Below, one piece after another: positions 1,554-30,963 of a DNA stretch of 64,000 nt (position 1 is the stretch's first letter; each line of letters begins with the position of its first letter). The translations under genes were made by a program, and so were the position numbers. The stretch is taken from positions 1,536,001 through 1,600,000 of the forward strand of contig CM000207.1 of assembly GCA_000002445.1 (NCBI GenBank), given 5' to 3'. The notes under the pieces are model-generated. The model searched no databases and was not told the DNA's origin. It was given only the letters and a program-made list of their open reading frames with translations. This DNA comes from Trypanosoma brucei (Eukaryota).

Positions 1554-1997
1554 TCACTTGTATGCTACGAGTGCTGGGCGCAAGTGCACATCCAGCCTCC
1601 GCTGCACCGCCGCCGTTTTCAATTTGAGGAGACCCATTTCCACTTGATAGCCTACCAGGCACAGAATAGCTTTTCCACCCACCGACATGGCGCAGAGTTT
1701 CTTACTACCGAAATCGATCAAGACTTGCTCCAAAGCTTCAGGTTCTAATTCATTTGTTATCTTGCTTTTTGCCAAGTCATTTTGGGCGCTTGCACGCCAT
1801 ACGTTTCCTATGGCAGCAATGATCATGGTTCGTTCCCTTGAGTACGAGTATTCTTCGCTGCTTGATGCAGAGGACAACAGGACACCTTCTTCGTCGAGAA
1901 GAAGTGCCGCCAAAATACCACTCCCCACGGCGCCATGCAGACACTCATTAACTACTGCCGCTTCAAGCATAGCTGTTTCTCCGGCTTTCCGAGACAT
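1554..1997 (-). CDS. Roadblock/LC7 (MglB-fold) domain protein, most similar to LAMTOR2/p14. The ORF as given runs to 2024; the likely start is one of the internal Mets (MSRKAGETAMLEAAV...).
   Basis: Blocks ALLLDEEGVLLSSA, IIAAIGNVWRASAQN and KLCAMSVGGKAILCLVGYQVEMGLLKLKTAAVQ line up with LAMTOR2 ([13 protein letters not shown] / [11 protein letters not shown] / [32 protein letters not shown]) as I recall it. Confidence 0.6.
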   Translation of the reverse strand: MSRKAGETAMLEAAVVNECLHGAVGSGILAALLLDEEGVLLSSASSSEEYSYSRERTMIIAAIGNVWRASAQNDLAKSKITNELEPEALEQVLIDFGSKKLCAMSVGGKAILCLVGYQVEMGLLKLKTAAVQRRLDVHLRPALVAYK

Positions 1998-3176
1998 TGA
2001 TAATGAACTGCAGCCCACAAGCAACTATATGCGTTGTACGCTTTCGTGTATCCTTTGGTGTATGTATGTGCCCACGATAATTGTGTTCGACTCCTTGCAC
2101 AGCCCTCTGGAATTAAAATTAAGGAGAGGGGAAAGACAGCTGAGCCTCCTGTCTCAAAAAATAAATTGACCGACAGTGTGTGTGTGCGTGTGAGAAACAG
2201 CAAATGTCGCGTGCAGGTCAAGTTAGTGGTGCCAAAACCGTGTAAGAAGTAATACGCTATACGCAAACGAACGAATGAACGAACTGAGCTACAAAGAATA
2301 GGGAGGGCGTGATGGCAATGCCACCGAGCTTACTCTTCTCTTTCGTCCCCCTGGTCCTACGCGCGTGTATTACTTATGTTTTCCTTTTCGTCCCGCCAGT
2401 CGCCCCCTCACAAAATAAAAATCCTTCGGGACCATCACCCGGTAACAAATAACCTGTGCCCCTCCTGCGATATTGAGTGCAGCTCTCACACGGACCCCAC
2501 ATGTCTTAACCACACGCCCACAGATATCTTAACCGACCGAACGCTGCACTAATGGTGCGAAGTTGCAGAGAAAACAAAGAGAAAAGGGAAAACAAATGCC
2601 ATCCAACACGTGACCAATGATCTCAATGGATTTTACTTGTTTCCAATAGGGAAGCTACCTCCAACCCTCTCCTTGAAGACAATGGTCTAGGCAATCAAAA
2701 GGAAGACACAAGCAACGCAATCAGATGTGTAGAAGCACCCTGTATAAATGCAGCTGCGGGTCTAGCTCATTTTGAGAGCCTGTCCGTACTGTCACGAATA
2801 ACTGTTGTCGAGTTTCTCTTTTCCCCTCATTGCCGTACATACACACTGAGGCCTTTTTTTGTTTGCCCTTATGTGCACCACTCGATGGCTACATCAATAC
2901 GGTTTTAGCCAAGAGTCGAATAGTTTATTCACAACAACCTGAATGAATAAAATAATAATAATAATGAGCCTACTGTATTGTATTTGGGGTGGCAACACAT
3001 CCCGCTTGCATACTGCGTTCCTTTAGTTGCTTGGTCGTCCTGTTCTGTTCCTCATGCCAGTCGATCTTGCGGCTGTTTTATCTCTGCACGCCTTGTCGTC
3101 ACACCAAGTCATGTAGCCAGACTGAAGCGCTCCATGACTGAACCAAACTGAGGATGGGATGTGACACTCACATCCT

Positions 3177-4124
3177 TCAGTTCTTGAAAAATACAACTGG
3201 TTCTTCTAAAGCTGCCACGCACTTGAACGGCAAGTCGTGGGCAAAGTCTTGAGGCACATAGCGGGACGGCGGCGGCATGCTTCTGTCGAGCAAATCGAAA
3301 GTCGCGAGGAATGAAGCAACCAATGACCCGTTGAACAAACGGAACGTTTTATCAGGTTCGACGAAGGTAGCCAAATGCTGCTTCATCACCTCCATCTCCT
3401 TCAGTTTTTCCTTTTGCCCATTTATGGCGGAGTTTGACGCACCGCTTTTAATCATCTGGTAGATCTTACACCTCTGGCGGCACATATCCACCACACATTC
3501 ATAGTGTTTGTGCTCCCGATTGTACCGCATACTTGCTGAGAACAAATACCACGGATGGGGTTCGAGTTTCTGAACCTCCTCCGCGAAGACAGATGCAACC
3601 GCTGCATTGGGCTTGCGTCCAGCATCCGCATCGGCTACAACGAGCCTCCTAAGCGCAATACCACGCGGCATTCGATCTTTGATAAACTTTTCCAAGCTCA
3701 ACACATGAGCTCCCGTGAAATCACTGAAGAAAACATGGGGGACTCCCTCCTTTACCCAAATGACCCCAACATCATCCCACGAAGACTTCAGCAGAACCTT
3801 CGACAGAACACTGTACAGTTTGTGGCCCCAAGTAGGCAGCGTGTACCACCGATTACAGATTGCGATAACATCACCTGTTCGGAACGCACCCGGTGGTAGC
3901 TCTGTCACTTCCCACGTCGCACGATAGTACATGTCCCTTCCCTCAGCAACAATTAATATTGATATGGGAAGCGCCTGCAACACCGCCTTGAGATGGACAT
4001 GTAGTTTCTGCCGCCGCGATAACTTTGGGCCAATGCTCGCCATAATAGTAGCGCGGCGAACGCACAGGGCCCTACAAATGTTGGGGATAGGGACAGAAGT
4101 AAAGCAAGAGAGAAAGATAAGCAT
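3177..4124 (-). CDS. Conserved hypothetical protein (315 aa ORF). No family recognised; the true start is probably an internal Met (MASIGPKLS...).
   Basis: Long minus-strand ORF with coding-like composition, in register with neighbouring genes. Confidence 0.5.
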   Translation of the reverse strand: MLIFLSCFTSVPIPNICRALCVRRATIMASIGPKLSRRQKLHVHLKAVLQALPISILIVAEGRDMYYRATWEVTELPPGAFRTGDVIAICNRWYTLPTWGHKLYSVLSKVLLKSSWDDVGVIWVKEGVPHVFFSDFTGAHVLSLEKFIKDRMPRGIALRRLVVADADAGRKPNAAVASVFAEEVQKLEPHPWYLFSASMRYNREHKHYECVVDMCRQRCKIYQMIKSGASNSAINGQKEKLKEMEVMKQHLATFVEPDKTFRLFNGSLVASFLATFDLLDRSMPPPSRYVPQDFAHDLPFKCVAALEEPVVFFKN

Positions 4125-4266
4125 TTCTTTGAGTGAAAAGGCAAGAGTACCAGACAGATTAATGGCGATGTTGCTCCTGATTCCAGTCCATCAGCTTTCG
4201 ATGAAAGAAAAATTTAAAGAATGGTAAGAGTACGGCAAAGTGTAGACGTGCATTTGTGCATACTGC

Positions 4267-5337
4267 CTACTTGCCACTCTCCGACAATCCGTATGTGACC
4301 AACGCCTCGCCCGCCTTAACGATATCCCCTGGTTTAACCGCTACTGACGCAGTTTTTGGAATGTCCAAAACCAGCACGACGGAGGAACCCCAGTAAAAGG
4401 TAGAGAGGAGGTCCCCTTTTTTTGATGTGGCCGCCCTGCTATAACACCTGTGTACAGCGTATTCCGGGGGAGCTAAAAAATTTGTTTTGATGCGTTGATC
4501 CAAATGCAGTACGATACGCCCAGTTAGTGTGCCGCCCACAAGGGCCAACCCCATGTTCCCACTGGCACTGTGCTCGTCAGTCCAACTTCCAAGGAGAACC
4601 ACCCGCTCGTTTAATGGAAGGACAGAGGGAATCCAGTGATATCCCGCCGGTGTGTGCGGTAGTAAAGCACCGGGTATATACACGACTTCCTTACAAGTAA
4701 ACAAACACGGCGTTACCACATGATGATAATCTTGGGTTCGCAGATGTAAAGCAACAGCAATCCGCCGATTCCCCTCTGCCACGGTTCCCAGCGGGCTATG
4801 GAAAAGCCGTCTTACGCTATATGTTACTCCCTTAACCTGCAGCAACTGATCGTCTACCACATCCTCCTGGACTGAGAGCACAACACCATCGGAAGGCATA
4901 ACAACAGGTGACGTGGCAACTCGTCGCTCGCCATCTTCCCACCTACGAACGAAGAATTCTTGCAGTGTTTTATATTCCCGTTCTTTTCCCCGCGGCGCAT
5001 CCATACCGTACCACCAAATGATTGCCGCAATAACTGCACGATGGAAAGAAGACGGCAAACATTCATTCTCACTTATCCTTCCGCAGATGTGCGAAATATA
5101 GTTGAAGGGGAAAAGCATTAGCATCTCCAACATTCCAACAGAACACAAGCGAGTTCCCCCCTCGGGGTGACGTGTTGCCTCCCATGCGGCAAGTTGGTAC
5201 CGCCCACCGACGTAAACTGCGCCACCAATGATCGCACCACCAAAGAGGTAGTGATACAACCAGCGCCGCATCGGGTTTGTGAAGGGTCTCGTTGTGTCAT
5301 TCTTGTAGAACCGCAGTTGTCGTGTGAGCGAAGCCAT
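4267..5337 (-). CDS. PSD: Phosphatidylserine decarboxylase proenzyme
   Basis: PSD hallmark HLRTQDYHHVVTP (LRxxDYHRxHxP-type) and the proenzyme cleavage-site motif WGSSVVLVL (LGST-type) are present. A purine-rich tract on + at 5473-5502 gives an upstream polypyrimidine tract in mRNA sense. Confidence 0.8.
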   Translation of the reverse strand: MASLTRQLRFYKNDTTRPFTNPMRRWLYHYLFGGAIIGGAVYVGGRYQLAAWEATRHPEGGTRLCSVGMLEMLMLFPFNYISHICGRISENECLPSSFHRAVIAAIIWWYGMDAPRGKEREYKTLQEFFVRRWEDGERRVATSPVVMPSDGVVLSVQEDVVDDQLLQVKGVTYSVRRLFHSPLGTVAEGNRRIAVALHLRTQDYHHVVTPCLFTCKEVVYIPGALLPHTPAGYHWIPSVLPLNERVVLLGSWTDEHSASGNMGLALVGGTLTGRIVLHLDQRIKTNFLAPPEYAVHRCYSRAATSKKGDLLSTFYWGSSVVLVLDIPKTASVAVKPGDIVKAGEALVTYGLSESGK

Positions 5338-6256
5338 GAAAGAATCAGTCCCTTTTCTGTTTTAGTTGCTTTCTTCCAGCGGGTCCTTTAGTATTTAACA
5401 AGGTGTGGGAGATTCCCCTCACTCCTCACCCAAGTTTTCTCGTTAGACCACCGCTGGGTGCTCTACCATCGTAAAAAAAAAAACAAAGTTAAAGAAAGAG
5501 ATACTGGCGGACGCACATTACGTATTTATGTTTAGGCGTATGACAGCTCGTCGGAATATATATGAGAATATGAAAATATAAGATCAAATGAAAGCAGAAA
5601 CTTACTCCACCAGGAGTATCTGAAATGTGAAGTCCCTGGTCAGTTGGAGGCGCTGTATCGGCCCAAATTTGCAAAACAAAAATCAAACAGTAACTTGAAG
5701 GTACGCCGAATAGCAAAGGAATAAGATGCACCAACAAATAATTTAAAAAAAGGATTTCACCGATAACCAGCTCATTATGTTAGAAAAGGTAAACATAACC
5801 ATAACACTAAAAGAGAGAATCATCTCAACAACCCCTTTCTTCGCTTAAGTTTGTCCGTAGATCATTGCCCTTTAACGTGGCTGATTTTGTAGTTAATTAC
5901 ATTTATTTACAATTATTTTTCCTCTTTTAAAAATATTCATTTATGAGTTATATCAATACTTCCCCCCTCCCATCCTAACGGCCACCTTCCTCTTTCCTTA
6001 ACGGGCGTCGCCGTTGCCATCAGGGAAGTGACACCTTAGTTACCGGGGAAATGGGGTTCCATCAGCAGCACAGCCGTGAGCCAACAGAAGGTCAAATTGA
6101 AAAAAGAAAAGCTAAAAACAGAGATATAGCAGCTTGGTAGACAAGCAGGGGATCCCCAAACCCTAAATTAATAACGAGACAAACGGAAATGCGTGACTAT
6201 CAACAGTGCGTGTGAATAACAAAATTGGGAGTAACGGGCACAGGCGAACTCCCGTG

Positions 6257-9200
6257 TTACTCACCGTCACGAGCGAGCAGCCGCTTGACAACGTAGCTAG
6301 TGATTGGCCAGAGTCGCTGCTGGTCTGCCTCACAAAGACTTGAAAAGCCTCGTATTGTCCCCGCGCAATATGATGAACCGCACAGGCAAACAAAAGGGCT
6401 GTTCATTACCCACTCTGTAGTACAATAGTTGAATGTAACCATTTCCCCTTTCGAAATTTCCCTCAGTGTCACAAACCGAAGTCTGGTCTTCTGTTCATTT
6501 ACCTCAACTTGCACATTCGGGTCACAGTGGTGAGCAATGCACTCCGCACCCTCACCAAAGAGAAGGTGCCTACTCTCACCCACACAAATGGTGTACATTG
6601 TGGGAAACGGGACAACAAATCCAGACACATCAAAAAGGACGACCCCCTTCTTGATGAATGTGCTTGCATAGGCCGTCTGGCCCATGTCTCCGTTCTGACG
6701 GATTTCAATTAGGGGTGATGTTGACTTAACAGTCCAGCCATCGCGCATGGCCTGCGCCCGCACGGGAGGTTCACACAAGTAAAGGTTTTGTTGCTTAGTG
6801 TCCTCTTCCATATGACAGAATCCGAGGCAATGCTGAGAGTACGCTCGAGGAAATAGTGGTTTCATATCATATACGAAGTAATTCATATTAACCGTTAATA
6901 GTTCACCCGCTTCAATGCTGCGCAGCGCCAGGAAGCGGCCTTCCACCAGCACGGTGTTCCCTTCCTCCTTATGTTGAATGATGTACCCATTTTCACCAAC
7001 TGCAACCTGTACTGGTTGAATGTCAATGTTCGTGCACTCCAATAGCACCGTTTTGCGCGCGACAGGGCTCACCGCGTATAACATTCTTGACTGATTGACA
7101 TCCAGGACGGGTGGTAGTCTTACAGACGCAGTTAAGCCGGCCAGTCGACGCATTGCAGGCGTAATGTACCTTTGAAGCATGGACCGCTGCGCGCTTGAAA
7201 GGAATTTGAACCCACGAATATTGTGCAAGCAGCTGGAACTATTACACTTACATTGGAACGGGCTGTGCAGCTCCCATTCTGTCGTCACGAAGTTCGCCGT
7301 CACGACCTCCCCGACGGCGATGTCTCTTATGGTTTCAAACTCTATCGCCTCATTTAAAGCATCCACGCGTATACAAGTGTTTGGATCGCAACTGTGGGAC
7401 ACGAACTGCGCACCGCCAGAGGGAAGGAGGTGTCTGCGTTCCCCCAGTTGCAACGTGAGAGGCGTTGGGAATGGCAAAGAACGTCCCTTTGTGGCGAGCA
7501 AGCGAGTGCCGGCCGCAACGCGAGTTTTGGCAATAACCTCCAAGCCGGCAGTGCAGCTGCGGAGTCCAATAAGCTGAGAGTCAGAGCGACTTGTGAAACC
7601 ATCCCGTATTGCAGCAGCGCGCACGTCCGGCTGCGCGAAAACGATTAGTGCCTCCTTATCTTGCTCATCCAACCATTTGAAACCTCGAACCTTGTGCGGC
7701 TGAGCAAAGCGGCAACACTTGCACTCGATCTCTTCTGGAAGCGAGTAGCTCAGGCAATTAAGGTTAACGTTTAGTTCATCACCGGCAGAAACAGTACGTA
7801 GCAGTACGACCCTCTTCTCAATGAGCGCCGCGGTTGGAGAGCAGTGGTGTTTGAGGCGAACTCCATCAATGTAAACGAAGTTGTCTAAAACTTCCACTGC
7901 TGAGTATTCGATGACGACTGTCCCTGCCACCATTTCGGTTGCCACATGTACCGTCCCCTCGTCGCATACCATAAGCCTTTTGGAAGCAATCTGTATCCAG
8001 GCACCTTTTGGGTTACTTTGAGTGTCCGCCACAAGGGACTTGATTGCTGTGGATGTCACGTTCCACAGCTTCTGACGCGCGTCATTGCCAAGGTGTTTAA
8101 ACCCCCCTATCCATCCGTAACATTTTTGCGATCCGCAGACACACATGAAAGGGTACTGCATATCCCATTCCGTCGTGAGGTAGTTAAATGATATGACCTC
8201 ACCTTTCCGAATATCTCGCAATGCAATGCACTCGATTGTCCTCGCAGTGTTGTCTGTAAGAACGCGTGTGTTTGGGTCGCAGCTGTGCGCAAGACACTGC
8301 GCTCCGCCACCAAAAAGAAGATGCCGCCTGTTGCTTAGAAGAATGGTATGCATAGTGGGAAAGGGTAAGGTAAGGCCATTCACGCGAAAGAATCGGGTTC
8401 CCTTTTTAATGTCAGACTTTGCGAATGTCGACTGCCCCATTTGCACATCCGCCTTCACTTCCACAAGTGGGGAAGAACTTTTAACGAGGAAACCATCCAA
8501 AACAGCGGCCTCTCGAACATGTGGGCTCGCACAAATCAGCTCAGCATTCTTCATCTCGTCAGTGAGGCCTTTGAAGCCGCTCACTTCTCCAACGCAGTGT
8601 TCTCCTTTGCAGTTGCACTTAAATGACGTAGTAGTGTAGCAAAGGTGGTTGATGTTGATTGTTACAGCTTCACCACGCAGCGAAGCCCGGCGAAGAACAA
8701 CACTTCGCCCCAGCAAAACAGCGTTGGCAAAGCACGAGTGCTTGACGCGTATATCATCCAGTGCAACCTCATCACCAATTACCTGAACGTCTGTGACGTT
8801 GAAGAGCTTAACCCCAGACGTCGTGTCACACATTAACCGAAGCTCCCCCGATGTCTCGTGAATAGAGATAAGCGAGTCATCAAGGGATGCCAACACACCA
8901 CGGCGTTGGCGCGAAAACATAGACTTCACTCCCCTTGCTGCGTGCGGCCACAAACGTAGTTGGGCCCTTGCGTCAAGATACCGAAAACCTCTGATAAGGC
9001 CATAGCAGTTAGCAGTACCACAGATGCACCTGAAGGAGGATGCTAACTCCCATTCAGTAGTGAGGTAGTCGTAAGTTAACATCTCGTCCAGTTTAATATC
9101 ACGCAGCGACAGGCAGTATCCGCTCTTTGTGGACCTGTCCATAACAACACGCAGGTTAGGTTCACAACTATGTGCGATGCAGCGTGCCTGATCCGTGAGA

Positions 9201-22365: not shown

Positions 22366-22872
22366 TTATTCCTCCAAATCCTTCAAGTCCGCTGGTGCAT
22401 CCTCCTCCTCATCATCCGAATCGTCATCCATGGCTCCCATGTCCATACCTCCCATATCCATACCTCCCATGTTCATCATGTTGGAGAGGTCTCCATAGTC
22501 GCCAAATCCGGCGGGCACCTCATCCGCCTCGTCTTCATCCTTCCACAAATTCCAGTCAACAGAGAGCCAATTCTTTGTGCTGCTCGTTGGTTGGTCCACC
22601 AGCTTGTTCCAGTACCCTTCATCCTTTTTCGCCGCGCATACCTGAATGGACACGCCTAGCACCTTGAAGCTGGACTTCTCCGGCACAATTTCCTTCAGAA
22701 GGGTTATTTCATCCTTCAACTCGTGTGGCTCGCTGGAGCGCTGCGTGACGCCCTGACCGCTGATTTTGATCGTCTTGTCGGTGAAGGTGATGTTAACATC
22801 CTTCGCTGACGCCACCTGGAGGGTGATGTACAACTTATCATTGCGCTCTGCCCACTTGGTTGGAATGTGCAT
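22366..22872 (-). CDS. HSP90 co-chaperone p23 (CS domain), with a C-terminal (MGGMD)n and acidic tail
   Basis: PTKWAERNDKLYITLQVASAKDVNITFTDKTIKISG...WNKL...NWLSVDWNLWKD versus human p23 [35 protein letters not shown]...WPRL...NWLSVDFNNWKD. Confidence 0.85.
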   Translation of the reverse strand: MHIPTKWAERNDKLYITLQVASAKDVNITFTDKTIKISGQGVTQRSSEPHELKDEITLLKEIVPEKSSFKVLGVSIQVCAAKKDEGYWNKLVDQPTSSTKNWLSVDWNLWKDEDEADEVPAGFGDYGDLSNMMNMGGMDMGGMDMGAMDDDSDDEEEDAPADLKDLEE

Positions 22873-23740
22873 TTCGTTCCACTGGAAGGAGTAGAAAATG
22901 AGTAAGGGTTGTGTAAAATGTAACCTTATTACAATTGATTAAAAAACACAAAAACACACATACGTACGCACAGTGCAAAAAAAGTGAAACATACGTTCGG
23001 CGTGACATGAAGGCATTGTGCGCGTATGCGGAGGAGAAAGCATAGAAGTTAGAGAATAGAAAGGGGAGAAGTCATAGCGGTTGAGTTAAAACGAAATGTA
23101 TCAACAGATGCACATGTGCAGAATCATATGTTAATGTTTAAGCCGACGTGTCTATATGAATAAATGTTTATTCATATGACGTTACTGTTACACAGATGAA
23201 CAGTGCTTATTCGTCAAGTCACCAACAAGTGAAGGAATTAAAAGAGAAGTGGGAAAGGGACACCACCCGGGGCGGTTATTCTCCTCAACCGCCTTATTGA
23301 GAAAAACATATTCTCCTCGTTCGGTCACTTGCGTCTTCTTTCTCTCTCTTTCTTTCTCTCCCTCCTGTTTTCTCATCATTTCTTCCTCCATCTTGCCCCC
23401 TTTTCACTTCTGAATGCAACAAAAACCGTCAACTCCCTCCCTCACCTTCGCACAATTAATTCATCACAGATGTATAAACTGTTACGAACAGAAGGGGAGA
23501 GGTGATGATAAGGAGGATAAGTGCAAGAAATGGAAAGGGAGGGAAAAAGTCATGGTAGCGCATCCAACTGCGCCGACAAATGCGCGCGTCCACTCCCGTA
23601 TTCAAACCTCCTTCATGCTGTGTCTTTTCACAACTGTGCTTTGAAAAAGTAAAAAAAAAAGCTATGCACGCTCCCAAAGCTTCATTTATCTTTTTCTTTC
23701 TTTCTGTTGCGGCTAACGTTGGTCCATATGAGCATCACAT

Positions 23741-23968
23741 CTATTCCTTTGGTACTTCCCGAATGTACAACACATTATTGTTACGCAGCAGCATGTCTCC
23801 AAGTTCCGTCTCCTGTTTTGCCTTTTCCACTGCATCACGCAGTTGCAAATTCATGTACGGATCACAACTGACAAGTGTACCAACATATACGGGGCCCCAT
23901 TTACTCTTCACATGGACTGTGTTACCCACCAAACTTGCGAGAAACGCCGCCGGTACATTTGCATCCAT
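23741..23968 (-). CDS. Sm-like protein (SmF/LSm6 type, 75 aa)
   Basis: Sm1/Sm2 motifs: [31 protein letters not shown] ... NNVLYIREV, compared with SmF [29 protein letters not shown]...NNVLYIRGV. Confidence 0.75.
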
Positions 23969-23989
23969 TACTTTCTTATTTAATTTTAA

Positions 23990-26900
23990 ATTTGCACCTT
24001 CTTACTATTTTTTTTTTATCTGTATGTTTGTCCGTATGGTTTGATTTCTTTTTCCCCTTCCCTCCGTAGGCACACCGGCTGAAAATTACAACGATAATAA
24101 AGTGGAGTAAAAAAAAAGAAAGAAAGTAAAGTCAGAAATTGGCCGCAATAATAATAATAACGAACAACAACAACAGCAACAAAAAAAAAATAATTAAAGA
24201 CAAAAACAACATATAACCATGGAAATTTTGGGACAGATGTAAAGAAAAGATATTTAAAAAATTAAATTAAAAAGAATAGCTCCACAAGGGAAGAATGCGT
24301 ATCAGAATAAAAGGTACACAATACCAATTCTCCTAACGGACGAAACCACATCAAAAACATTCCTCCCTCTCTCTCTTTCTCTCACATTTTATCCCAACTA
24401 ACACATAACATAACAATACGTAAAATATTGTACGACATTACGTAGTTGTGACACCTTTTCATGTTGTTGCGATGCTCGCAAAACTCCTATTGTTTTTTTT
24501 AAAAACATTATGCCATGATTTTTCCTTTCCTATCCTATCCTATTTATTTAATTATTTTTAAGTTGTTGCTTATCATAAGGTGATATTATTCCCTTTCAGG
24601 CGCATTCGACTCCTTCAGAAAAAAGAAAATGAAAAAGAAAGAATGTGAGTTCAGCAGTACAGGACGAAAGTAAGAGCACGCAGATAATTGAATTTATTTT
24701 TTTATTTTTAAAGAAAAATAATAATTGAGAAACTCAACGGTGAGATATTTTTGAACAAAAACATTTCAGTTGGAAATAAATTCGAAAGAGTTGTTCGTTC
24801 ATTTTCTTTTTTTTTCCTTTAAAATGACCTTTTTCGTGTTCCCCATTTTTAATTTCCTTCCTTCCACTGTTTTTCTTTTTTCCTTTTTCACTTATCTATC
24901 TAATTTTGATCTTCTTTAGGTTTACAACAAGCGGAAAGGAATTCACATGAGGAACACACTCCCCCCCCCCAATACACCACACACACACAAAAAAAAAAAT
25001 GTAAATGTAAATATCACGAGTTGAAAGCGGTTCCGCAATGGAGATTGTAAGAGGTGTAATTCCAATAAAACAGAACGAACCAAAGGGAAGTTTGAACGGT
25101 GTCCATACGGTGTTATTAATGTTGCTTTTATAGAATTTGAAAGTTAAATAAATAAATAAAAAGACGGAAGAGAAGTTGAAAGAGTTTTCTTTCCTTTTTT
25201 TTGTAAAAAAAAAAAGGAAAAAGAAGAAAAAGAACCACACTGGGGAGGTGGGCGACGGTGTTTTACTTTACTGTACCCCTTCCTGCTATTTATTCCCTTC
25301 ATTGTTCCTCTCATCACAGTTTGTAATAACGATAACAATAACAATACAAGTAAACATGATAATGATAAGTGAATCAATATCTCTTCTCAAATAATATTTG
25401 TGTACAAATAAAATTGATGAAAGCAAAAAGAAAAAAAAGAAGGGGAAAAAGAGGAAGAAAGAACCTATACAAGAGTCACCAGGTAGTAAAGCTTCAGTGC
25501 ATTCTTTTTGTTTTTTCTTCTTTTTTCTTTTCTTTTAAAAAAAAAAAACGCCGGAAAAAAAATGTTGTTGAGGTGACTTCCACATTTTTCATCGTTTTGT
25601 TCCCCCCCCCCCGTAATAGATAAAACACACACACACACACACTTTCCCCCGTCTGTTATATTTATTTATATAACTCCATTTGAACACTCGTTTATATGTG
25701 CCAATATCTTCTTTTTTTTTTTCTCGTCCTCTCTTCACTCCATATTTTGGTCCTCACACCGCCCCTCACCTTCTTCGTAGCAAAACTAAAAACAAAAAAG
25801 AAAAACAAAAAAAAAAATTTGGTTCGAAAATGAAAACTTAATTTAATTTAATTTAATTTGCAAAAACAAACAAACAATAAAGAGATAAACCCTTTTGGGC
25901 AGCATTATCGATGAGAATAATACTAATAATAGTAATAAGTTTTCTCATCAATATATGTAATAGCAGCGGAATATGATATAATGGTACAAAGCGAGTGCTG
26001 TATCATTTCAAAAAGTGAATATATATATATATATATATTTATAATGAAAAACAAAAACCGAAGAAAAATTAATGGCAACGTGTGACCTCTTAACCACTTT
26101 TCTTCATTTCACTCAAAACTTTCACTCATTTCTTCCCCCTCCTCCAATACATCCACACACAAGTGAAAATTAAAAAAAAAAAGAAAAAAAGAGGAAATAT
26201 ATATATAACGGATCAAATAAAGCAGCCAAACAGCACCAAAGAAAAGTAAAAAAGAAAAAAAAAGAATGTTTTATTTCATTATTACCTGCTGCCGTATCAT
26301 CCACCTCCTCTTATTTTTCTTTTTTACAATTTTCGTTCCTCTTACATGAGAGGTTGTTACACCGAAAGTATAAACAAAAAAAAAAGAAAGAGGGGTTTCT
26401 CTTTTGTGTGAAAATATAAATACGGAACGTCAAAAATAAATAATTCGATTGAAGCAAAGTGTTTGAAGGAGAAACAAAAACGAAAAGTAGAAAAAGCAGC
26501 ATTCATCCAATAATCCAAAAAGCGTTTTTGTATAAGTCAGAAGAGAACAGAAACTGGGAAAATAACTGTTTGTTTTTTTTTTTCCTTTCTTCTCCTTTTC
26601 AATTATATTCTATTAAAATGTTGTTATTGTCAAAGTTCCCTTTTTTTTTTATAGAAAAAAATTTCCATCAGTACAAATGCAAAATGACAACGGCAACATC
26701 ACGAACAGACACCCAAAGGAGGAAAATTGTGATCGGTTAAAAATGCGATGAAAATTAAAAAAAAAAATTCTCCCACTCTGTTTTCTTTACTTTCTTCTTC
26801 TTCTCGTCACGCCTTTTAAAAAAAAAAAAGAACTATTGGTGTTTGCTCTTTTCTAATAATAATAATAATTATTATTATTATTTTGGTTTATATTCCCCAC

Positions 26901-27164
26901 TACTTCTTTATATTCATTCACTCATTTTTATTACCTCCCCCTTATTATAATAATTAGTATTATTATTATTATTATTATTTGCCTCCTCTTTGTGGTGCAT
27001 TTGTAATTGCAAGTAGCCAACACCACCACCACTACCACCCTTCTTTTTTTTTTCCTTCTTTTTTTCCCCCTTTTTTTTTGTTTCCACCAGTTTGTGTAAG
27101 TTCCAGTTCCCTCATGCAATATTTTTCCCAGACATATTTTTCTTTTCTCTTTCTTTTGTCAAAC

Positions 27165-27198
<34 letters not shown>

Positions 27199-29866
27199 AA
27201 ATATGTGCTTGAGCATTTGGATACCGCGTGCAGTGGACAAAACAGCGCTAATGTTACAACTAAGGAAAAGTTGGAACGCATTGAGGGGAGGAAAAAAAAA
27301 TTTTTTTTTTTAAAAAGGAAGAAACCGCAATAAATAAATAGATAAATGGAGATTGTTTTTTTTTTCCTCCTGCTTTAAAAATCATTCACTTGAAAATTTA
27401 AATGCGTGCTCGTGTGCGCTGAGAAGCAAAAAGAAAAACAAAAAAAAAAGAAAAGAAACAGATTAATTTTTTTTTTAAAAAAATGAGAACTAGTGGAAGA
27501 AGAGGAGAATAAAAAGGGACGAGGGAGTATAAATTAAACAGAAATAAATTGTTGATTCATGCTGAAAGACAAAAAAAAAAAGAGGGAAAAGAGGACCGAG
27601 CAATACGCGTGTAGAATTTATACACAGCATACATAAATATAAAACCAGTACAAAAATAAACATAATGACAAAAATAACTGTAGCAATAAAAGCAATCACC
27701 ATCATATTCAGTTGTGACTTCAGCAAAATTATTACGTTCTTCTCTTTTTTTTGTTTTTCCTCCATTTTATTCGTTGCTTTGTTTTACATTTCTTTGTTAC
27801 ATTCTTTTTCTTTTCTCCCTCTAACGGTTACCGTGTCCGTTACCTTTAAAAAGAGGAAAAGAAATCAAAAAAAAAAAAGTTGAAAGAAACCGCAAACGAA
27901 GTCAAGACATTTATAACCAAAGAAAAAAAAATGAAACTTTTTTTTTTTAAAAAAAAGATAGGTACCACTAGCACTGGAAGTATAGAATAAAAAATATATA
28001 AAATACGTAGCACTATTCATTTTTCCTTTTTTTTATTCTCATAATAATCAAAAATAAACAATAATTTTCTTCTCACTTTGTAACGAGAAGAAAGAAGAAA
28101 AAAAAAAACAAAATCGCCCCACAGTTCATCCATAATGGAATGGATGGTAATAAAAGGGGCTGCAGTAAAAAGAAAAGGAAAAGAAAAGAAGAAAACAAAA
28201 CAAAACAAAAAAGCAAATTTAATATAACTTCCCCATGATTCCTTTTTTTTCCCCCTTTTCTTTATTTCTTTATTTGATTTTGTTTTGCCACACGCAATTC
28301 CTCATTTTACTTTCCTTCTCCCATTTCCTTCTTTTCATCATTTGTATTCATTAATGAAAGTTTAATGAATACAAAAGCGTAAAAAAAAAATAAATAAATA
28401 AGAAACAAGAGATTAAAAAAAAACAAAGAAGGGGAAAGGAAAGGAAAGGAGAGGAGAGGAAAAGAAATGCAACAAAATAAATAAATTCGTAACAAAGAAA
28501 GTAAAAAAAAAAGGAAACCACGTACTAAAAGAGACGTCACTAACACCACTGTCAATAAATAAGCACAAAGATATAAAACTATATAGTGAATATATATATA
28601 TATATAGGTATATACAAATATACATATGACCAAAAAGGAGAGGGGAAGAAAAGAAAACAGCAGAAAAATAATATAAAAGAAAAAAAAATTTTAATGCGTG
28701 CACGCGCGAAAACAAAACAGACGAAATGGAAAAAAGAAAAAGGAGCCAAGAGTTCTCTGGGAATAAAGTTCCAAAATCTTCAGCAGCGAAAAAAAAAAAG
28801 AAGCAGGAATGACGGAAGGAGACCGCCTCAATGCTTCATCTCTACACACTAATAAACGGTGACTTTTTTTTTAAAAAAAATTACTCTTGTGTATTCTTTT
28901 CAATTAAGTCTTTGTGTAGGATAAATAAATACGTGCGGAATATATGTTTATTTTGCGTATAATTATGCTGCTGAATTTACTCTACCCCCACTTCGCTTCA
29001 CTCGCTATTTTTCCAGTCTGTATTTTATTTCATAGTACCTTTGCCCCTCCTTTTTTTTAAAAAAAAGGGTCATCTGCTTTTAGCTTTCTCGCGTTTTTTT
29101 TAAAAAATTTTATTTCCTCTCAGTTTCTAATTTTTTCCCCTCCTTTCTTCTTCTTCTATACATTTGTTTTTAATCCTTCCCTATTTGTGGCATTACTGCA
29201 CATTTTCCTTTATATATTTTCCCCTTTAAACTAATCCTGTTTGCTTGTTGTTGTTGTTGTTTTTTTTTTTTACCACCTGAATAGATCATCGTTCGATGGT
29301 GAGCCCATTACTTCGCACTATCAAAAAAATGCCACTAAAAAACCAGCAAGGAAAAAAAATTAACAACAGGGGCACGCCACAGTATTTTAAAATATATTCA
29401 CATAATTTTCCTTCATTTTTTCCTTTCCCGTTTCTTTTTTTTTTAAATTCTCTCACACTGCTCGTCTCAGTTCGTCAATTTTTTTTTTCGCTCTTCTTTC
29501 CATTTAACTCCTTTTTTTTTTACTTTTCCTCCTCCCTTTTTTCTTTTTTTATTTCTAACATGCCACACCTCTCAAACGGCTATGATTATCATTGTGATTC
29601 TCTCCTTTTTACTATACCATCTTCATAAATGGAACAAAACAAAACAAAAAAAGTGAAAATAGTGAAGTAACGAAAAAAAAAAGTAAAAAAAGAATGAACT
29701 GACTTTCACATCATCATATGTACTTGAAGCATGAACCATTTTGCCTTTTTTTTTTTGCATTGTCTCTTTCTCTTTCTCTTTGCCAAGGGCCTTCATGTGA
29801 AGAAATGTTTTTTTTTCCTTCTTCTTCTTCTTTCTTTCTTTTTTTTTTACTTTTTTTTTTTCCACA
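23990..29866. repeat. Gene-free ultra-low-complexity A/T tract of about 5.9 kb: homopolymer A and T runs, (TA)n, (TAA/ATT)n, (GAAA)n-like. Every ORF in it is a poly-K/F/L artefact.
   Basis: Direct inspection shows alternating A-rich and T-rich blocks, for example 24111-24190 and 25191-25230 (A-rich) and 26560-26660 and 29480-29560 (T-rich), with sparse G/C. No coding-like ORF is present. Confidence 0.8.
24081..24210 (-). promoter_or_regulatory. Extended polypyrimidine tract (mRNA sense) upstream of the Sm gene; a likely SL-acceptor and polyadenylation-coupling region at the distal end of the A/T tract
   Basis: + strand gtaaaaaaaaagaaagaaagtaaag...aataataataataacgaacaacaacaacagcaacaaaaaaaaaa. 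Confidence 0.4.
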
Positions 29867-30244
29867 TCACTTGGCTACCCACTCATTAGGGTCCTCACCA
29901 TGAGAGAATCGACAGTTGCGGCGGTTGCAACGACTTCTTAAATGATGTCTGCAAAGGGAAGACGGAGACACCTTCGAATTCCCTGCTGCCGGTTCCACTG
30001 AAGCCTCCTTCGTGTAACCATCGCCACTCGTCCCAAGGAGTAGAACAGTAGTCGACAGATTATTGTTAGGCATCATAAGCGGCCGCACCACCGGCGGGAC
30101 GGGAACCGCAGCCCACATGTAAACGCATTGAGGAACGACTGGAGATGTTTGTGGTGGGGTTGGGGGAAGCGGGTTATACATCATGGGTGCCGCAAGAAAG
30201 AACGGTTGTGTCGGCTGAGGTTCTGCTGCACTGGGGAAGATCAT
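29867..30244 (-). CDS. Small CCCH zinc-finger protein (ZFP1-like), with a proline-rich N-terminal half (NPLPPTPPQTSP) and a single C-terminal C-x7-C-x4-C-x3-H finger. The likely start is the internal MMYNP (about 105 aa).
   Basis: C-terminal CRHHLRSRCNRRNCRFSH, preceded by a Pro-rich region. Its 3' end abuts the 5.9-kb A/T tract. Confidence 0.6.
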   Translation of the reverse strand: MIFPSAAEPQPTQPFFLAAPMMYNPLPPTPPQTSPVVPQCVYMWAAVPVPPVVRPLMMPNNNLSTTVLLLGTSGDGYTKEASVEPAAGNSKVSPSSLCRHHLRSRCNRRNCRFSHGEDPNEWVAK

Positions 30245-30963
30245 GTTACTGGGTTTCTGTTTCGCTTTGCTTTGCTTTGCTTTACTTTCCTTGTTGTTGA
30301 TGTTTATGATGCTGTCGGGAGAACTCTCCTTCTTGCCCGTTTGCTCCTTTTGGAAGTTGCTCTTGATGAAGCGTCTTTTGTAAGTAAACGCCCCAACGAA
30401 AGATATGAATATATATACCAGTTGATCTCTTTTTTATCCCCTCGAATCAGGAATGGCTCGTCCACGTACTACAGAAATATCCTTCAGTCAAATGTAGTAT
30501 TGCAGCAATGTCGCGCTCTTTCTTTTCCCCTTGCGGTTGAACTTCAACGCCGTCGAAAATGAAAGAAATAAGGTAGTGGAATGACATTCCGTAATATAAG
30601 AGTACCGAGCATAACACAGATACATATACATAAAGAAAGTGGATAAAGGAAACATGGGAATCTCGAGACATTGCATGAAACAACAAACAACCCTTCTCCC
30701 CATCACACACACACACACACCCAAACAAACAAATATACAAATGAGGGAAAATAAGAGCATACACCAACCACCCACTCTCTCCATTTTGGGGGGACTTTTG
30801 ACTACAGTTTCCCAAAAAAAAAAAAGATAAATGGGAGAAACGAAGTGTTTTAGCAGCCTCTCGCGACAAGCCTCCAAAGGGGACCAAAAAAGTTATAGCA
30901 CTTTGCGGGTGTCGGGTGGCAGGGAGAACAATGCTTAAAAAAAAAAACAGCCAATACGATTGG

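Follow-up and report, generated by a model that had tools for sequence, protein, structure and literature searches.

A long A/T-rich spacer on Trypanosoma brucei chromosome 9 and the annotated 5.1-kb 3' UTR of ZC3H48

The long spacer at positions 23969-29866 of the 64-kb stretch that we have analysed (the window: T. brucei brucei TREU927 chromosome 9, v4 1,536,001-1,600,000; positions are those of the window unless another version is named) is very probably, for the most part, the 5.1-kb 3' UTR of the mRNA of ZC3H48, an explanation that also takes in a 3' end set by trans-splicing and a stage-tuning role of the UTR. This long UTR is a feature already known and annotated, and the main proposal of a previous reading made from the letters of the DNA (hereafter the sequence-only reading) is thereby supported. 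Since the spacer is mostly an annotated UTR typical of the very long regulatory UTRs carried by trypanosome RNA-binding-protein mRNAs, we consider it ordinary. The new details are the conserved arrangement ZC3H48-long spacer-SmF, a deletion in Lister 427 and a poly(dA)/poly(dT) signature.

The spacer (5,898 bp) extends between the stop of ZC3H48 (29867) and the ATG of SmF, whose position at 23968 places its limits at 23969 and 29866. No credible gene was found in between: none of its ORFs of at least 80 aa, all of low complexity, has a Pfam match, there are no tRNA genes and no Rfam family reaches the gathering score (at E<=1 there are only irrelevant sub-threshold matches). The tract is therefore gene-free, as had been claimed, and the minus-strand orientation noted for the flanking genes applies to every credible gene across the window. 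The lengths of the remaining 20 spacers range from 142 to 1,651 bp, so that this one is ~3.6-40 times longer and roughly eight times the median. Its GC content is 0.304 (0.40-0.50 in each of the other spacers) and it holds 56 of the 79 A/T homopolymers of at least 8 nt (71%) in 9.2% of the window, along with (TA)10-12, (TAA/TTA)n, (GGAAA)n and (AAAAG)n arrays, much as the blocks and (TA)n, (TAA)n and (GAAA)n-type runs had been described. Two expressions of the sequence-only reading were overstated, even if the long gene-free A/T-rich gap is real. "Almost no G/C" is contradicted by a G+C of 30% and by the presence of C10/C11 runs and (CA)n, and "ultra-low-complexity" is too strong for a sequence in which tandem repeats make up 17.6% and the compression ratio is 0.289 (0.311 for its own shuffle, 0.321 for the other spacers). 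The spacer is mostly unique A/T-rich sequence dotted with short runs.

The assignment to ZC3H48 is carried by two published maps; the transcript evidence for the spacer is thus that of published tables and not read-level coverage. Tb9.NT.104 (5,836 nt, minus strand, 30550-24714; Table S7 of Kolev 2010) spans both the ZC3H48 coding sequence and the tract. Independently, the 3' UTR of Tb927.9.10280 curated from nanopore direct RNA, spliced-leader reads and poly(A) reads has 5,113 nt (Tb927_09_v5.1:1611712-1616824, minus strand; Supplementary Data 1 of Trenaman 2024), which corresponds to 24754-29866 with an offset of +1,586,958 that we have checked on three genes; with the end at 24714 it would have 5,153 nt. 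Both maps agree with the proposal that the zinc-finger mRNA has a very long 3' UTR occupying most of the tract, with the refinement that this UTR accounts for 5.1 of the 5.9 kb. Some data are less simple. The poly(A) dispersion table of Kolev 2010 places the major site of Tb9.NT.104 at 26172 (mean near 26410, spread 835 nt), so that a large share of the procyclic mRNA may end ~3.7 kb past the stop and not at 24.7 kb, and Table S2 of the same work lists Tb09.211.1720 among the ORFs without detectable transcript, in conflict with its own Tb9.NT.104. In the Trenaman 2024 screen a single library fragment lies fully within the UTR (24971-26226), with zero counts in both arms.

The gene upstream of the tract (29867-30244, minus strand) is ZC3H48 (Tb927.9.10280 / Tb09.211.1720). 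Its 125-aa translation contains one C-x7-C-x4-C-x3-H finger (CRHHLRSRCNRRNCRFSH) and has weak matches to the zf-CCCH family of Pfam, in agreement with the small CCCH zinc-finger protein predicted here. The 5' end of the transcript, i.e., the spliced-leader acceptor, is at 30550 (start of Tb9.NT.104, v4 1566550; Kolev 2010), leaving a 5' UTR of 306 nt (30245-30550, minus strand). The poly(A) site of the upstream gene Tb09.211.1740 (1566662, window 30662) is located 112 nt before this start, a spacing that fits coupled processing. Within an mRNA of ~5.8 kb the coding sequence (378 nt) represents ~6.5% of the total. As for its expression, the ZC3H48 mRNA decreases when RBP10 is silenced by RNAi in bloodstream forms, and increases as metacyclics enter skin, and the protein scored as a repressor in tethering screens.

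The last 785 bp of the spacer contain a processing signal, a minor transcript of 505 nt and the predicted SmF splice acceptor. On the transcript (minus) strand, a polypyrimidine tract (24651-24619) is followed by an AG (24614-24613), and the base directly after it, 24612, is the mapped 5' end of Tb9.NT.103, a processed transcript of 505 nt and low abundance (RPKM 0.19; 24107-24612, minus strand, v4 1560612-1560107; Table S7 of Kolev 2010). This RNA is separate and lies downstream of the poly(A) site of ZC3H48 and upstream of SmF, another refinement of the initial picture. Since polyadenylation is known to be coupled to trans-splicing further downstream, the tract and AG at 24651-24613 are most likely the trans-splicing signal by which the poly(A) site of ZC3H48, 60-140 nt upstream, is determined. 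Further on, the purine-rich stretch of the plus strand at 24082-24215 is, on the transcript strand, a long U-rich polypyrimidine tract ending in an AG (24081-24080), 111 nt before the SmF ATG. We did not find a mapped SmF acceptor in the accessible published tables, and this element (24080-24215, minus strand), predicted from sequence alone, coincides with the acceptor proposed for the Sm gene (24081-24210). It would give SmF (Tb927.9.10250 / Tb09.211.1695; 75 aa, 23741-23968, minus strand, with a 3' UTR of 601 nt down to 23140) a 5' UTR of 111 nt (23969-24079, minus strand).

Within the UTR, the proximal 1 kb (28867-29866, minus strand) is A-rich purine in the transcript (44-45% A), with 16 A-rich poly-purine tracts of at least 9 nt, and is followed by a U-rich block (28367-28866, minus strand; 54% U) with seven poly-pyrimidine tracts, one of them of 43 nt (28467-28425). 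By a proxy and not by the published motif models, the densities per kb are 8.2 for A-rich poly-purine and 8.2 for U-rich poly-pyrimidine tracts, the corresponding values for the other spacers being 1.7 and 3.4. Polypyrimidine tracts of at least 12 nt number 27 (4.5 expected) and UAUUUAU appears 13 times (1.2 expected); there are also four (AU) repeats of at least five units. In our view the tract is transcribed within a single long Pol II polycistron on the minus strand, and the part transcribed first (5.1 kb, 29866 to ~24754/24714) is the ZC3H48 3' UTR. As is usual in trypanosomes, the 3' end is most likely fixed by trans-splicing where the next polypyrimidine tract and AG are used (24651-24613), a site at which the 505-nt transcript also begins, and the second one (24215-24080) would then serve SmF. 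The UTR itself may act as a platform whose A-rich poly-purine, U-rich poly-pyrimidine, (AU)n and UAUUUAU-type elements are dispersed and redundant; through them RNA-binding proteins would tune the stability and translation of the mRNA by life-cycle stage, with greater levels expected in the bloodstream form and in forms infective to mammals. Among the mRNAs up-translated in the bloodstream form, long UTRs with a high density of both kinds of tract are over-represented (Trenaman 2024). The 27 internal polypyrimidine tracts would have to be barred from directing splicing or polyadenylation; masking of the type exerted by DRBD18, which blocks the use of such tracts within UTRs, is a plausible means.

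Comparison among strains and genera is in line with such a dispersed and redundant function. The tract is colinear in T. b. gambiense DAL972 (5,995 bp), with a divergence of 2.1%, no slower than that of other spacers, and in the long-read assembly of Lister 427 save for two deletions that leave ~4.5 kb. There, 1.16 kb are missing between two repeats, (TA)12 at 27165-27188 and (AT)12.5 at 26019-26043. The order ZC3H48-long spacer-SmF is kept in Leishmania and Leptomonas, where a spacer of 5.2-6.7 kb occupies the same position. These spacers have no sequence similarity to the T. brucei tract, and no sense-strand ORF is conserved among them. The divergence, the internal deletion and the persistence of a long spacer are all consistent with dispersed, redundant function.

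Other interpretations of the tract have to be weighed. It could be a series of independent processed RNAs (long non-coding or alternative products) generated from internal signals, with a ZC3H48 mRNA that usually ends early. The 18 internal polypyrimidine tracts of at least 12 nt with an AG within the next 60 nt, the internal major poly(A) site at 26172 and the existence of at least one distinct RNA, Tb9.NT.103, at the distal end point in this direction, as does the finding that other long UTRs give rise to downstream RNAs of this kind when DRBD18 is depleted. Still, we judge it unlikely, since two independent maps 14 years apart draw the transcript or UTR without interruption as far as 24714/24754 and Table S7 of Kolev 2010 contains no other novel transcript between 24714 and 29866. 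Far less probable is a head-to-tail boundary of transcription units, at which Pol II would terminate and re-initiate on the same strand, as might be imagined for a spacer of such length and composition within a same-strand gene array. This alternative, also listed in the sequence-only reading, is contradicted by Table S14 of Kolev 2010 (5'-triphosphate ends), which has no start between Tb09.211.1720 and Tb09.211.1695 and places ZC3H48 and SmF in a single unit from Tb09.211.2460 to Tb09.211.1470; a continuous spliced and polyadenylated transcript traverses the tract, which lacks the tRNA, snRNA or rRNA genes that often mark internal boundaries. Elsewhere on chromosome 9 the same table does include internal starts. 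We give the least credit of all to an assembly artefact or an unannotated protein-coding gene. A short-read contig of T. equiperdum breaks inside the tract (28099 and 26181) and an old annotation had a "hypothetical, unlikely" ORF, Tb09.211.1710, at 29329-29628, but the ORFs are low-complexity and match no Pfam family, and no sense-strand ORF is conserved in the spacers that occupy this position in other genera. A misassembly, contemplated from the beginning, was rejected because three independent assemblies, TREU927, DAL972 and the long-read Lister 427, are colinear across the tract.

A different matter is a possible additional role, raised in similar terms by the sequence-only reading and compatible with the UTR, as a zone in which replication initiates or a region poor in nucleosomes, which we regard as tentative. 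DNA synthesis would begin at poly(dA) to poly(dT) transitions, as at the T. brucei short-nascent-strand origins, which are found in non-coding DNA, poly(dA)-rich upstream and poly(dT)-rich downstream, with nucleosome-poor centres (Stanojcic 2026). An A8 upstream and a T8 downstream within 0.5 kb accompany 37% of those origins and 9% of intergenic controls (Stanojcic 2026); the same combination is found at 87% of the positions of the tract and 7% of those in the other spacers of the window, and six of the eight strongest A-to-T polarity switches of the 64 kb, including the top one (~28858), are in the tract. This is, however, a sequence correlate, and a UTR in which A-tracts and U-tracts abound yields the same composition by itself.

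Considering the ZC3H48 3' UTR again, several known systems resemble it. The longest trypanosome 3' UTRs (at least 5 kb) are found on mRNAs of RNA-binding proteins and kinases. That of RBP10 (Tb927.8.2780) is 7.3 kb long and low-complexity; its (AU)n repeats are functional and it contains several regulatory segments that are redundant. It is likewise a multi-kb UTR on an RNA-binding-protein mRNA, with many low-complexity stretches, (AU)9-11, poly(A) tracts and numerous internal polypyrimidine tracts, and RBP10 shares the bloodstream-form-specific expression that we suspect for ZC3H48. The RBP10 UTR, however, has been dissected experimentally into several independent regulatory fragments and its processing depends on DRBD18, whereas that of ZC3H48 is known from sequence and maps, and ZC3H48 differs in being a tiny 125-aa single-finger protein. 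The 44 genes of the Trenaman 2024 cohort were selected by >20 FIMO motif hits per kb and >3-fold translation; like the long (>2 kb) tract-dense UTRs of that study, the ZC3H48 UTR is long (5.1 kb), belongs to an mRNA-binding-type product and has both tract types 2.4-5 times denser than the neighbouring spacers, although by our proxy and not by the FIMO criterion. ZC3H22 (Tb927.7.2680) also combines a CCCH zinc-finger mRNA with a 3' UTR of more than 5 kb, but it is procyclic-specific and repressed by RBP10 through nine UA(U)6 motifs, while the ZC3H48 UTR has only two (3.1 expected by chance) and its mRNA falls, rather than rises, on loss of RBP10. Finally, the tract shares with the SNS-seq origins of Stanojcic 2026 the poly(dA)-upstream/poly(dT)-downstream polarity in non-coding DNA, but those are sites of ~150 bp defined by divergent nascent strands, whereas here the resemblance is that of the bare sequence.

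The gene-free tract (23969-29866) begins directly downstream of the ZC3H48 stop codon (29867), on the same strand and in an array made up of minus-strand genes throughout. ZC3H48 (Tb927.9.10280, old ID Tb09.211.1720) encodes a zinc-finger protein of 125 aa at 29867-30244 (minus strand), and the gene at the other end, SmF (Tb927.9.10250, old ID Tb09.211.1695), an Sm protein of 75 aa at 23741-23968 (also minus). Identical 125-aa and 75-aa proteins are encoded in T. b. gambiense DAL972 (FN554972.1) and in a contig of T. equiperdum OVI. Published coordinates were converted with an offset of +1,536,000 for v4, taken from ZC3H48 at Tb927_09_v4 1565867-1566244, and of +1,586,958 for v5.1, verified on ZC3H48, Tb927.9.10310 (mitochondrial carrier) and Tb927.9.10230 (CS-domain), whose listed 3′ UTR ends adjoin the window ORFs.

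Two published data sets show the tract to be the 3′ UTR of an mRNA of low abundance that codes for this small CCCH protein. Among the novel transcripts of Kolev et al. (2010; PMC2936537, Table S7), Tb9.NT.104 (v4 1566550-1560714, minus strand, 5,836 nt, RPKM 1.23) corresponds to window 30550-24714, includes the ZC3H48 CDS and crosses the tract. It starts 306 nt 5′ of the ZC3H48 ATG and 112 nt past the poly(A) site of the upstream gene, Tb09.211.1740 (window 30662). The 3′ UTR given for Tb927.9.10280 in Supplementary Data 1 of Trenaman et al. (2024; PMC11405848), Tb927_09_v5.1:1611712-1616824 (-), is window 24754-29866, that is 5,113 nt; the genome mean and median in the same work are 622 and 388 nt. 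That UTR set combines the TriTrypDB annotation with 4,703 manually curated UTRs (nanopore direct RNA, spliced-leader and poly(A) reads). Taken together, these tables, from which transcript continuity was taken, describe a processed transcript that runs from a spliced-leader site through the CDS into the tract and ends at 24714/24754, on the same strand and in the same transcription unit as the CDS and with no coding or structured-RNA gene inside. The proposal of the sequence-only reading, that most of the tract is an exceptionally long ZC3H48 3′ UTR, is thus supported. In procyclic forms the major poly(A) site of Tb9.NT.104 is internal (at 26172, spread 835 nt, in the poly(A) dispersion table of Kolev et al., 2010; PMC2936537), and a shorter ZC3H48 isoform is therefore likely at this stage. 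Table S2 of the same study lists Tb09.211.1720 (ZC3H48) as "not producing a detectable transcript", while Tb9.NT.104 in Table S7 contains the same ORF; anyone relying on these tables could be misled by this inconsistent bookkeeping. Searches for ZC3H48 in the supplements of PMC8982893, PMC9380746, PMC11260167, PMC2926603 and PMC2916883 returned nothing.

The distal 785 bp of the tract have a different organization. On the transcript strand, a polypyrimidine tract (24651-24619, minus) followed by an AG (24614-24613, minus) provides a trans-splicing signal some 60-140 nt downstream of the ZC3H48 poly(A) site (24754/24714), which thus lies roughly 100 nt upstream of a used polypyrimidine tract and AG. 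The base immediately after this AG (24612) is the 5′ end of another novel transcript, Tb9.NT.103 (24612-24107, minus strand, 505 nt, RPKM 0.19; Kolev et al., 2010, PMC2936537, Table S7), a separately processed low-abundance RNA flanked by the ZC3H48 poly(A) site and the SmF acceptor. Perhaps it is no more than a side product of two polypyrimidine tract/AG signals in succession. The second of these is a long U-rich tract (24215-24082, minus) followed by an AG (24081-24080), 111 nt upstream of the SmF ATG, which is the predicted SmF spliced-leader acceptor. The expectation of an Sm acceptor at this end of the tract is matched by the U-rich tract and AG (24215-24080), with the acceptor itself standing as a prediction; the published site tables searched list no mapped SmF acceptor. 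In the reporter screen of Trenaman et al. (2024), fragment peak_2096 (window 22766-24947) covers the UTR end, SmF and a portion of the CS-domain gene. It showed strong enrichment in the positive arm (log2 fold change 4.6) and was flagged with a downstream splice site, which demonstrates that efficient signals for mRNA 3′-end formation and splicing are present in this region.

In size and composition the tract stands apart from the other spacers of the window. Its 5,898 bp compare with 142-1,651 bp for the other 20 minus-strand intergenic spacers, confirming the unusual length of this gene-free interval within a minus-strand array. The GC content is 0.304, against 0.40-0.50 in every other spacer. 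Runs of A or T of at least 6 cover 12% of it (0-7% of the other spacers), and 56 of the 79 runs of at least 8 found in the window are inside the tract, which makes up 9.2% of the window. Tandem Repeats Finder (TRF) detected some 40 short arrays, such as (AT)n, (TTA)n, (GGAAA)n and (AAAAG)n, with a coverage of 17.6%. The description as having almost no G/C is nevertheless overstated, and since G+C reaches 30% and the sequence compresses merely 7% better than its own shuffle, "ultra-low complexity" is too strong a term for it.

When the annotated UTR is dissected along the transcript strand, its first 1 kb is A-rich purine sequence (44-45% A), the next 0.5 kb has 54% U and the remainder is mixed. 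By a proxy stricter than the published motif models (runs of at least 9 nt with at least 60% A or U), A-rich poly-purine tracts reach 8.2/kb, against 1.7/kb in the other spacers pooled, and U-rich poly-pyrimidine tracts 8.2/kb against 3.4/kb; both types together occupy 26% of the UTR bases and 6% of the pooled spacers. Trenaman et al. (2024; PMC11405848) set their threshold at over 20 motif hits per kb for each type, A-rich poly-purine and U-rich poly-pyrimidine (FIMO p<0.01); with 5,113 nt, the UTR is well within the length range of their long-UTR class (>2 kb). Relative to dinucleotide shuffles, there are 27 polypyrimidine tracts of at least 12 nt (4.5 expected), 18 of them with an AG within 60 nt, and 13 copies of UAUUUAU (1.2 expected); (AU) repeats of at least five units appear four times. 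The RBP10-target motif UA(U)6 is not enriched in the UTR (2 against 3.1 expected from the same kind of shuffle), and neither are T(n)A(n) palindromes in the tract (for example T11A8 at 27938), with 5 against 3.9 expected after shuffling run order.

Several other explanations for such a spacer have to be weighed against the 3′ UTR. A centromeric or satellite array, with units of about 30-150 bp, is contradicted by TRF, the longest period being 20 bp and no array exceeding 54 bp. A hidden gene is contradicted as well. A tRNA scan found none, Rfam placed no family in the tract when the complete window was searched at gathering score and, at E<=1 on the tract itself, gave only irrelevant sub-threshold matches on simple repeats, and the nine tract ORFs of 80-114 aa had zero Pfam matches. 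A tract ORF on the plus strand (29329-29628) had formerly been annotated as Tb09.211.1710, "hypothetical protein, unlikely". By tblastn of sense-strand ORFs between spacers, none is conserved across genera; the ORF matches between L. major and L. (Viannia) are in overlapping frames, as expected of non-coding DNA that is about 67% identical. The alternative of a head-to-tail boundary, at which Pol II would terminate and start again on the same strand, is contradicted by Table S14 of Kolev et al. (2010; PMC2936537), in which Tb09.211.2460 to Tb09.211.1470 form one minus-strand Pol II unit. Both ZC3H48 and SmF belong to it, and no internal start (5′-triphosphate ends) is listed between Tb09.211.1720 and Tb09.211.1695. 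The continuous processed transcript across the tract also speaks against a boundary, and no tRNA, snRNA or rRNA gene, a frequent but not obligatory mark of such sites, is adjacent.

A role at the DNA level, related to replication, is of a different nature, and judging from composition the tract may have one. T. brucei origins defined by SNS-seq, with divergent short-nascent-strand peaks, are reported to lie in non-coding DNA, flanked by poly(dA)-rich sequence on one side and poly(dT)-rich sequence on the other and poor in nucleosomes at the centre (Stanojcic 2026), and the tract has this arrangement of poly(dA) upstream and poly(dT) downstream. The signature (A8 at most 0.5 kb upstream and T8 at most 0.5 kb downstream) applies to 87% of tract positions, against 7% in the other spacers, and the strongest A-to-T polarity switch of the window is found in the tract, at about 28858. 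This origin-like composition also results from the tract content of the UTR. The composition of a regulatory UTR overlaps the replication-origin signature, and the two are therefore inseparable by sequence alone.

The tract of T. b. gambiense (5,995 bp) is colinear, about 130 bp of microsatellite sequence excepted. Substitutions amount to 2.1% in the UTR, while the other spacers have 0.4-2.0% and the coding sequences 0-1.1%, so the primary sequence of the UTR is under no special constraint. In the long-read assembly of Lister 427 (CM010680.1; locus L015, about 4008-4390 and 6088-6850) the spacer is about 4.5 kb and lacks window 26037-27197 (1.16 kb, with endpoints in two (TA)12 repeats) and 27932-28099 (168 bp). 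An assembly artefact as the origin of the tract is contradicted by three colinear assemblies, this one being colinear bar the two deletions. The Lister 427 ZC3H48 ORF is frameshifted just upstream of the last His of the zinc finger (…CNRRNCRFLMVRTLMSG*), probably through a long-read indel error. The short-read contig of T. equiperdum OVI (CZPT02001025.1) breaks inside the tract. Its 33.8 kb represent a unit of roughly 35.8 kb in circularly permuted order, running from window 26181 down past 1, through about 1.25 kb more that include a protein kinase gene, and then from 34510 to 28099, with both ends (26181, 28099) inside the tract. Unlike in this contig, the kinase gene is followed by a DnaJ gene in T. 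b. gambiense and in Lister 427. The permutation reflects either a tandem duplication of roughly 36 kb or an assembly artefact.

Beyond T. brucei, a protein of 253-267 aa with the finger CRHY[IL]NGRCNRRKCRFLH is encoded directly upstream of SmF, and its pairwise E-value with ZC3H48 is 8e-12. These orthologues are syntenic in Leishmania, Porcisia and Leptomonas (loci L006 4005-4799, L008 10001-10795, L009 10001-10762 and L010 2-721) and twice as long as the T. brucei protein, with homology limited to the zinc finger and about 40 preceding residues. The gene order amino-acid permease, mitochondrial carrier, ZC3H48, SmF and CS-domain gene is kept. So is a long gene-free spacer between ZC3H48 and SmF, of 5,201 bp in a species of Leishmania (Viannia), 5,581 bp on chromosome 35 of L. 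major and 6,731 bp in Leptomonas pyrrhocoris (the two ORFs called there being of low complexity and not conserved), compared with 4.5-6.0 kb in T. brucei; in a further kinetoplastid it measures 2,166 bp. Within all three large loci it ranks first or close to first in length among the spacers. The syntenic interval is thus long (5.2-6.7 kb) in Leishmania and Leptomonas without sequence similarity: blastn of the tract against the spacers of Leishmania, Leptomonas, T. melophagium and the further kinetoplastid returned simple-repeat matches only. Apart from a lower GC in Leptomonas, the Leishmania and Leptomonas spacers are compositionally like their neighbours, so the extreme A/T-run character is specific to T. 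brucei. In the 237-aa L. donovani protein P0025, the N-terminal portion of the ZC3H48 orthologue (as far as …CRHYINGRCNRRK) is fused to complete SmF; this model is an annotation artefact in which the roughly 5-kb spacer was treated as an intron.

Single-sequence and profile searches found no ZC3H48 homologue in other Trypanosoma species. In T. melophagium (JAJSEB010000001.1) the ZC3H48 motif is absent within 10 kb upstream of SmF. There, an LRR-protein gene lies 533 bp upstream of SmF (locus L005, 1-9500), and beyond it are long repeats of the (CTT)n/(ATT)n type as well as a retroelement, with gag-like, probable tyrosine-recombinase-like, reverse-transcriptase-like and RNase H-like ORFs (1769-5681). 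By its ORF layout, the element is reminiscent of VIPER/DIRS elements.

A way to approach the function of the ZC3H48 UTR is to look at comparable ones. The longest trypanosome UTRs are on mRNAs of RNA-binding proteins and kinases. The RBP10 UTR, 7.3 kb and rich in low-complexity sequence, contains several independent regulatory segments, and its (AU)n repeats affect expression. Long UTRs in which A-rich poly-purine tracts and U-rich poly-pyrimidine tracts are both frequent are over-represented in mRNAs up-translated in bloodstream forms (more than 3-fold over procyclic forms), a long-UTR cohort enriched for mRNA-binding proteins (Trenaman et al., 2024). DRBD18 binds long polypyrimidine-rich UTRs and blocks the use of internal tracts as processing signals. 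The mRNA of ZC3H48 itself goes down after RBP10 RNAi in bloodstream forms and up as metacyclic forms establish in the skin. By analogy with these UTRs, that of ZC3H48 would act as a redundant, composition-based regulatory platform, which fits the speed at which its sequence drifts, its tolerance of the 1.16-kb deletion and the preservation of its length. The single fragment of the Trenaman reporter library wholly inside the UTR had zero counts. A more radical idea, which we consider quite improbable, is that spacer length and not sequence is selected. In one version of it, the huge UTR would be the main functional product and the 125-aa CDS almost incidental; the UTR could then serve as an RNA-binding-protein sponge or scaffold, or as a DNA-level element, e.g., a replication initiation zone.

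As a 3′ UTR the tract is already present in the current TriTrypDB-derived annotation and the feature is known. Three modest points could be extended: the gene order and spacer size common to Trypanosoma and Leishmaniinae, with the sequence not conserved; the natural 1.16-kb deletion of Lister 427, which marks a dispensable segment; and the shared composition of regulatory UTR and replication origin. Only the cross-genus position and size of the spacer and the overlap with the origin signature might repay more work. Multi-kb low-complexity 3′ UTRs on the mRNAs of trypanosome regulators are a well-described class, to which this one adds little by way of discovery, and in kinetoplastids an over-long A/T-rich same-strand spacer beside a small RNA-binding-protein gene is by default best interpreted as a long regulatory 3′ UTR.
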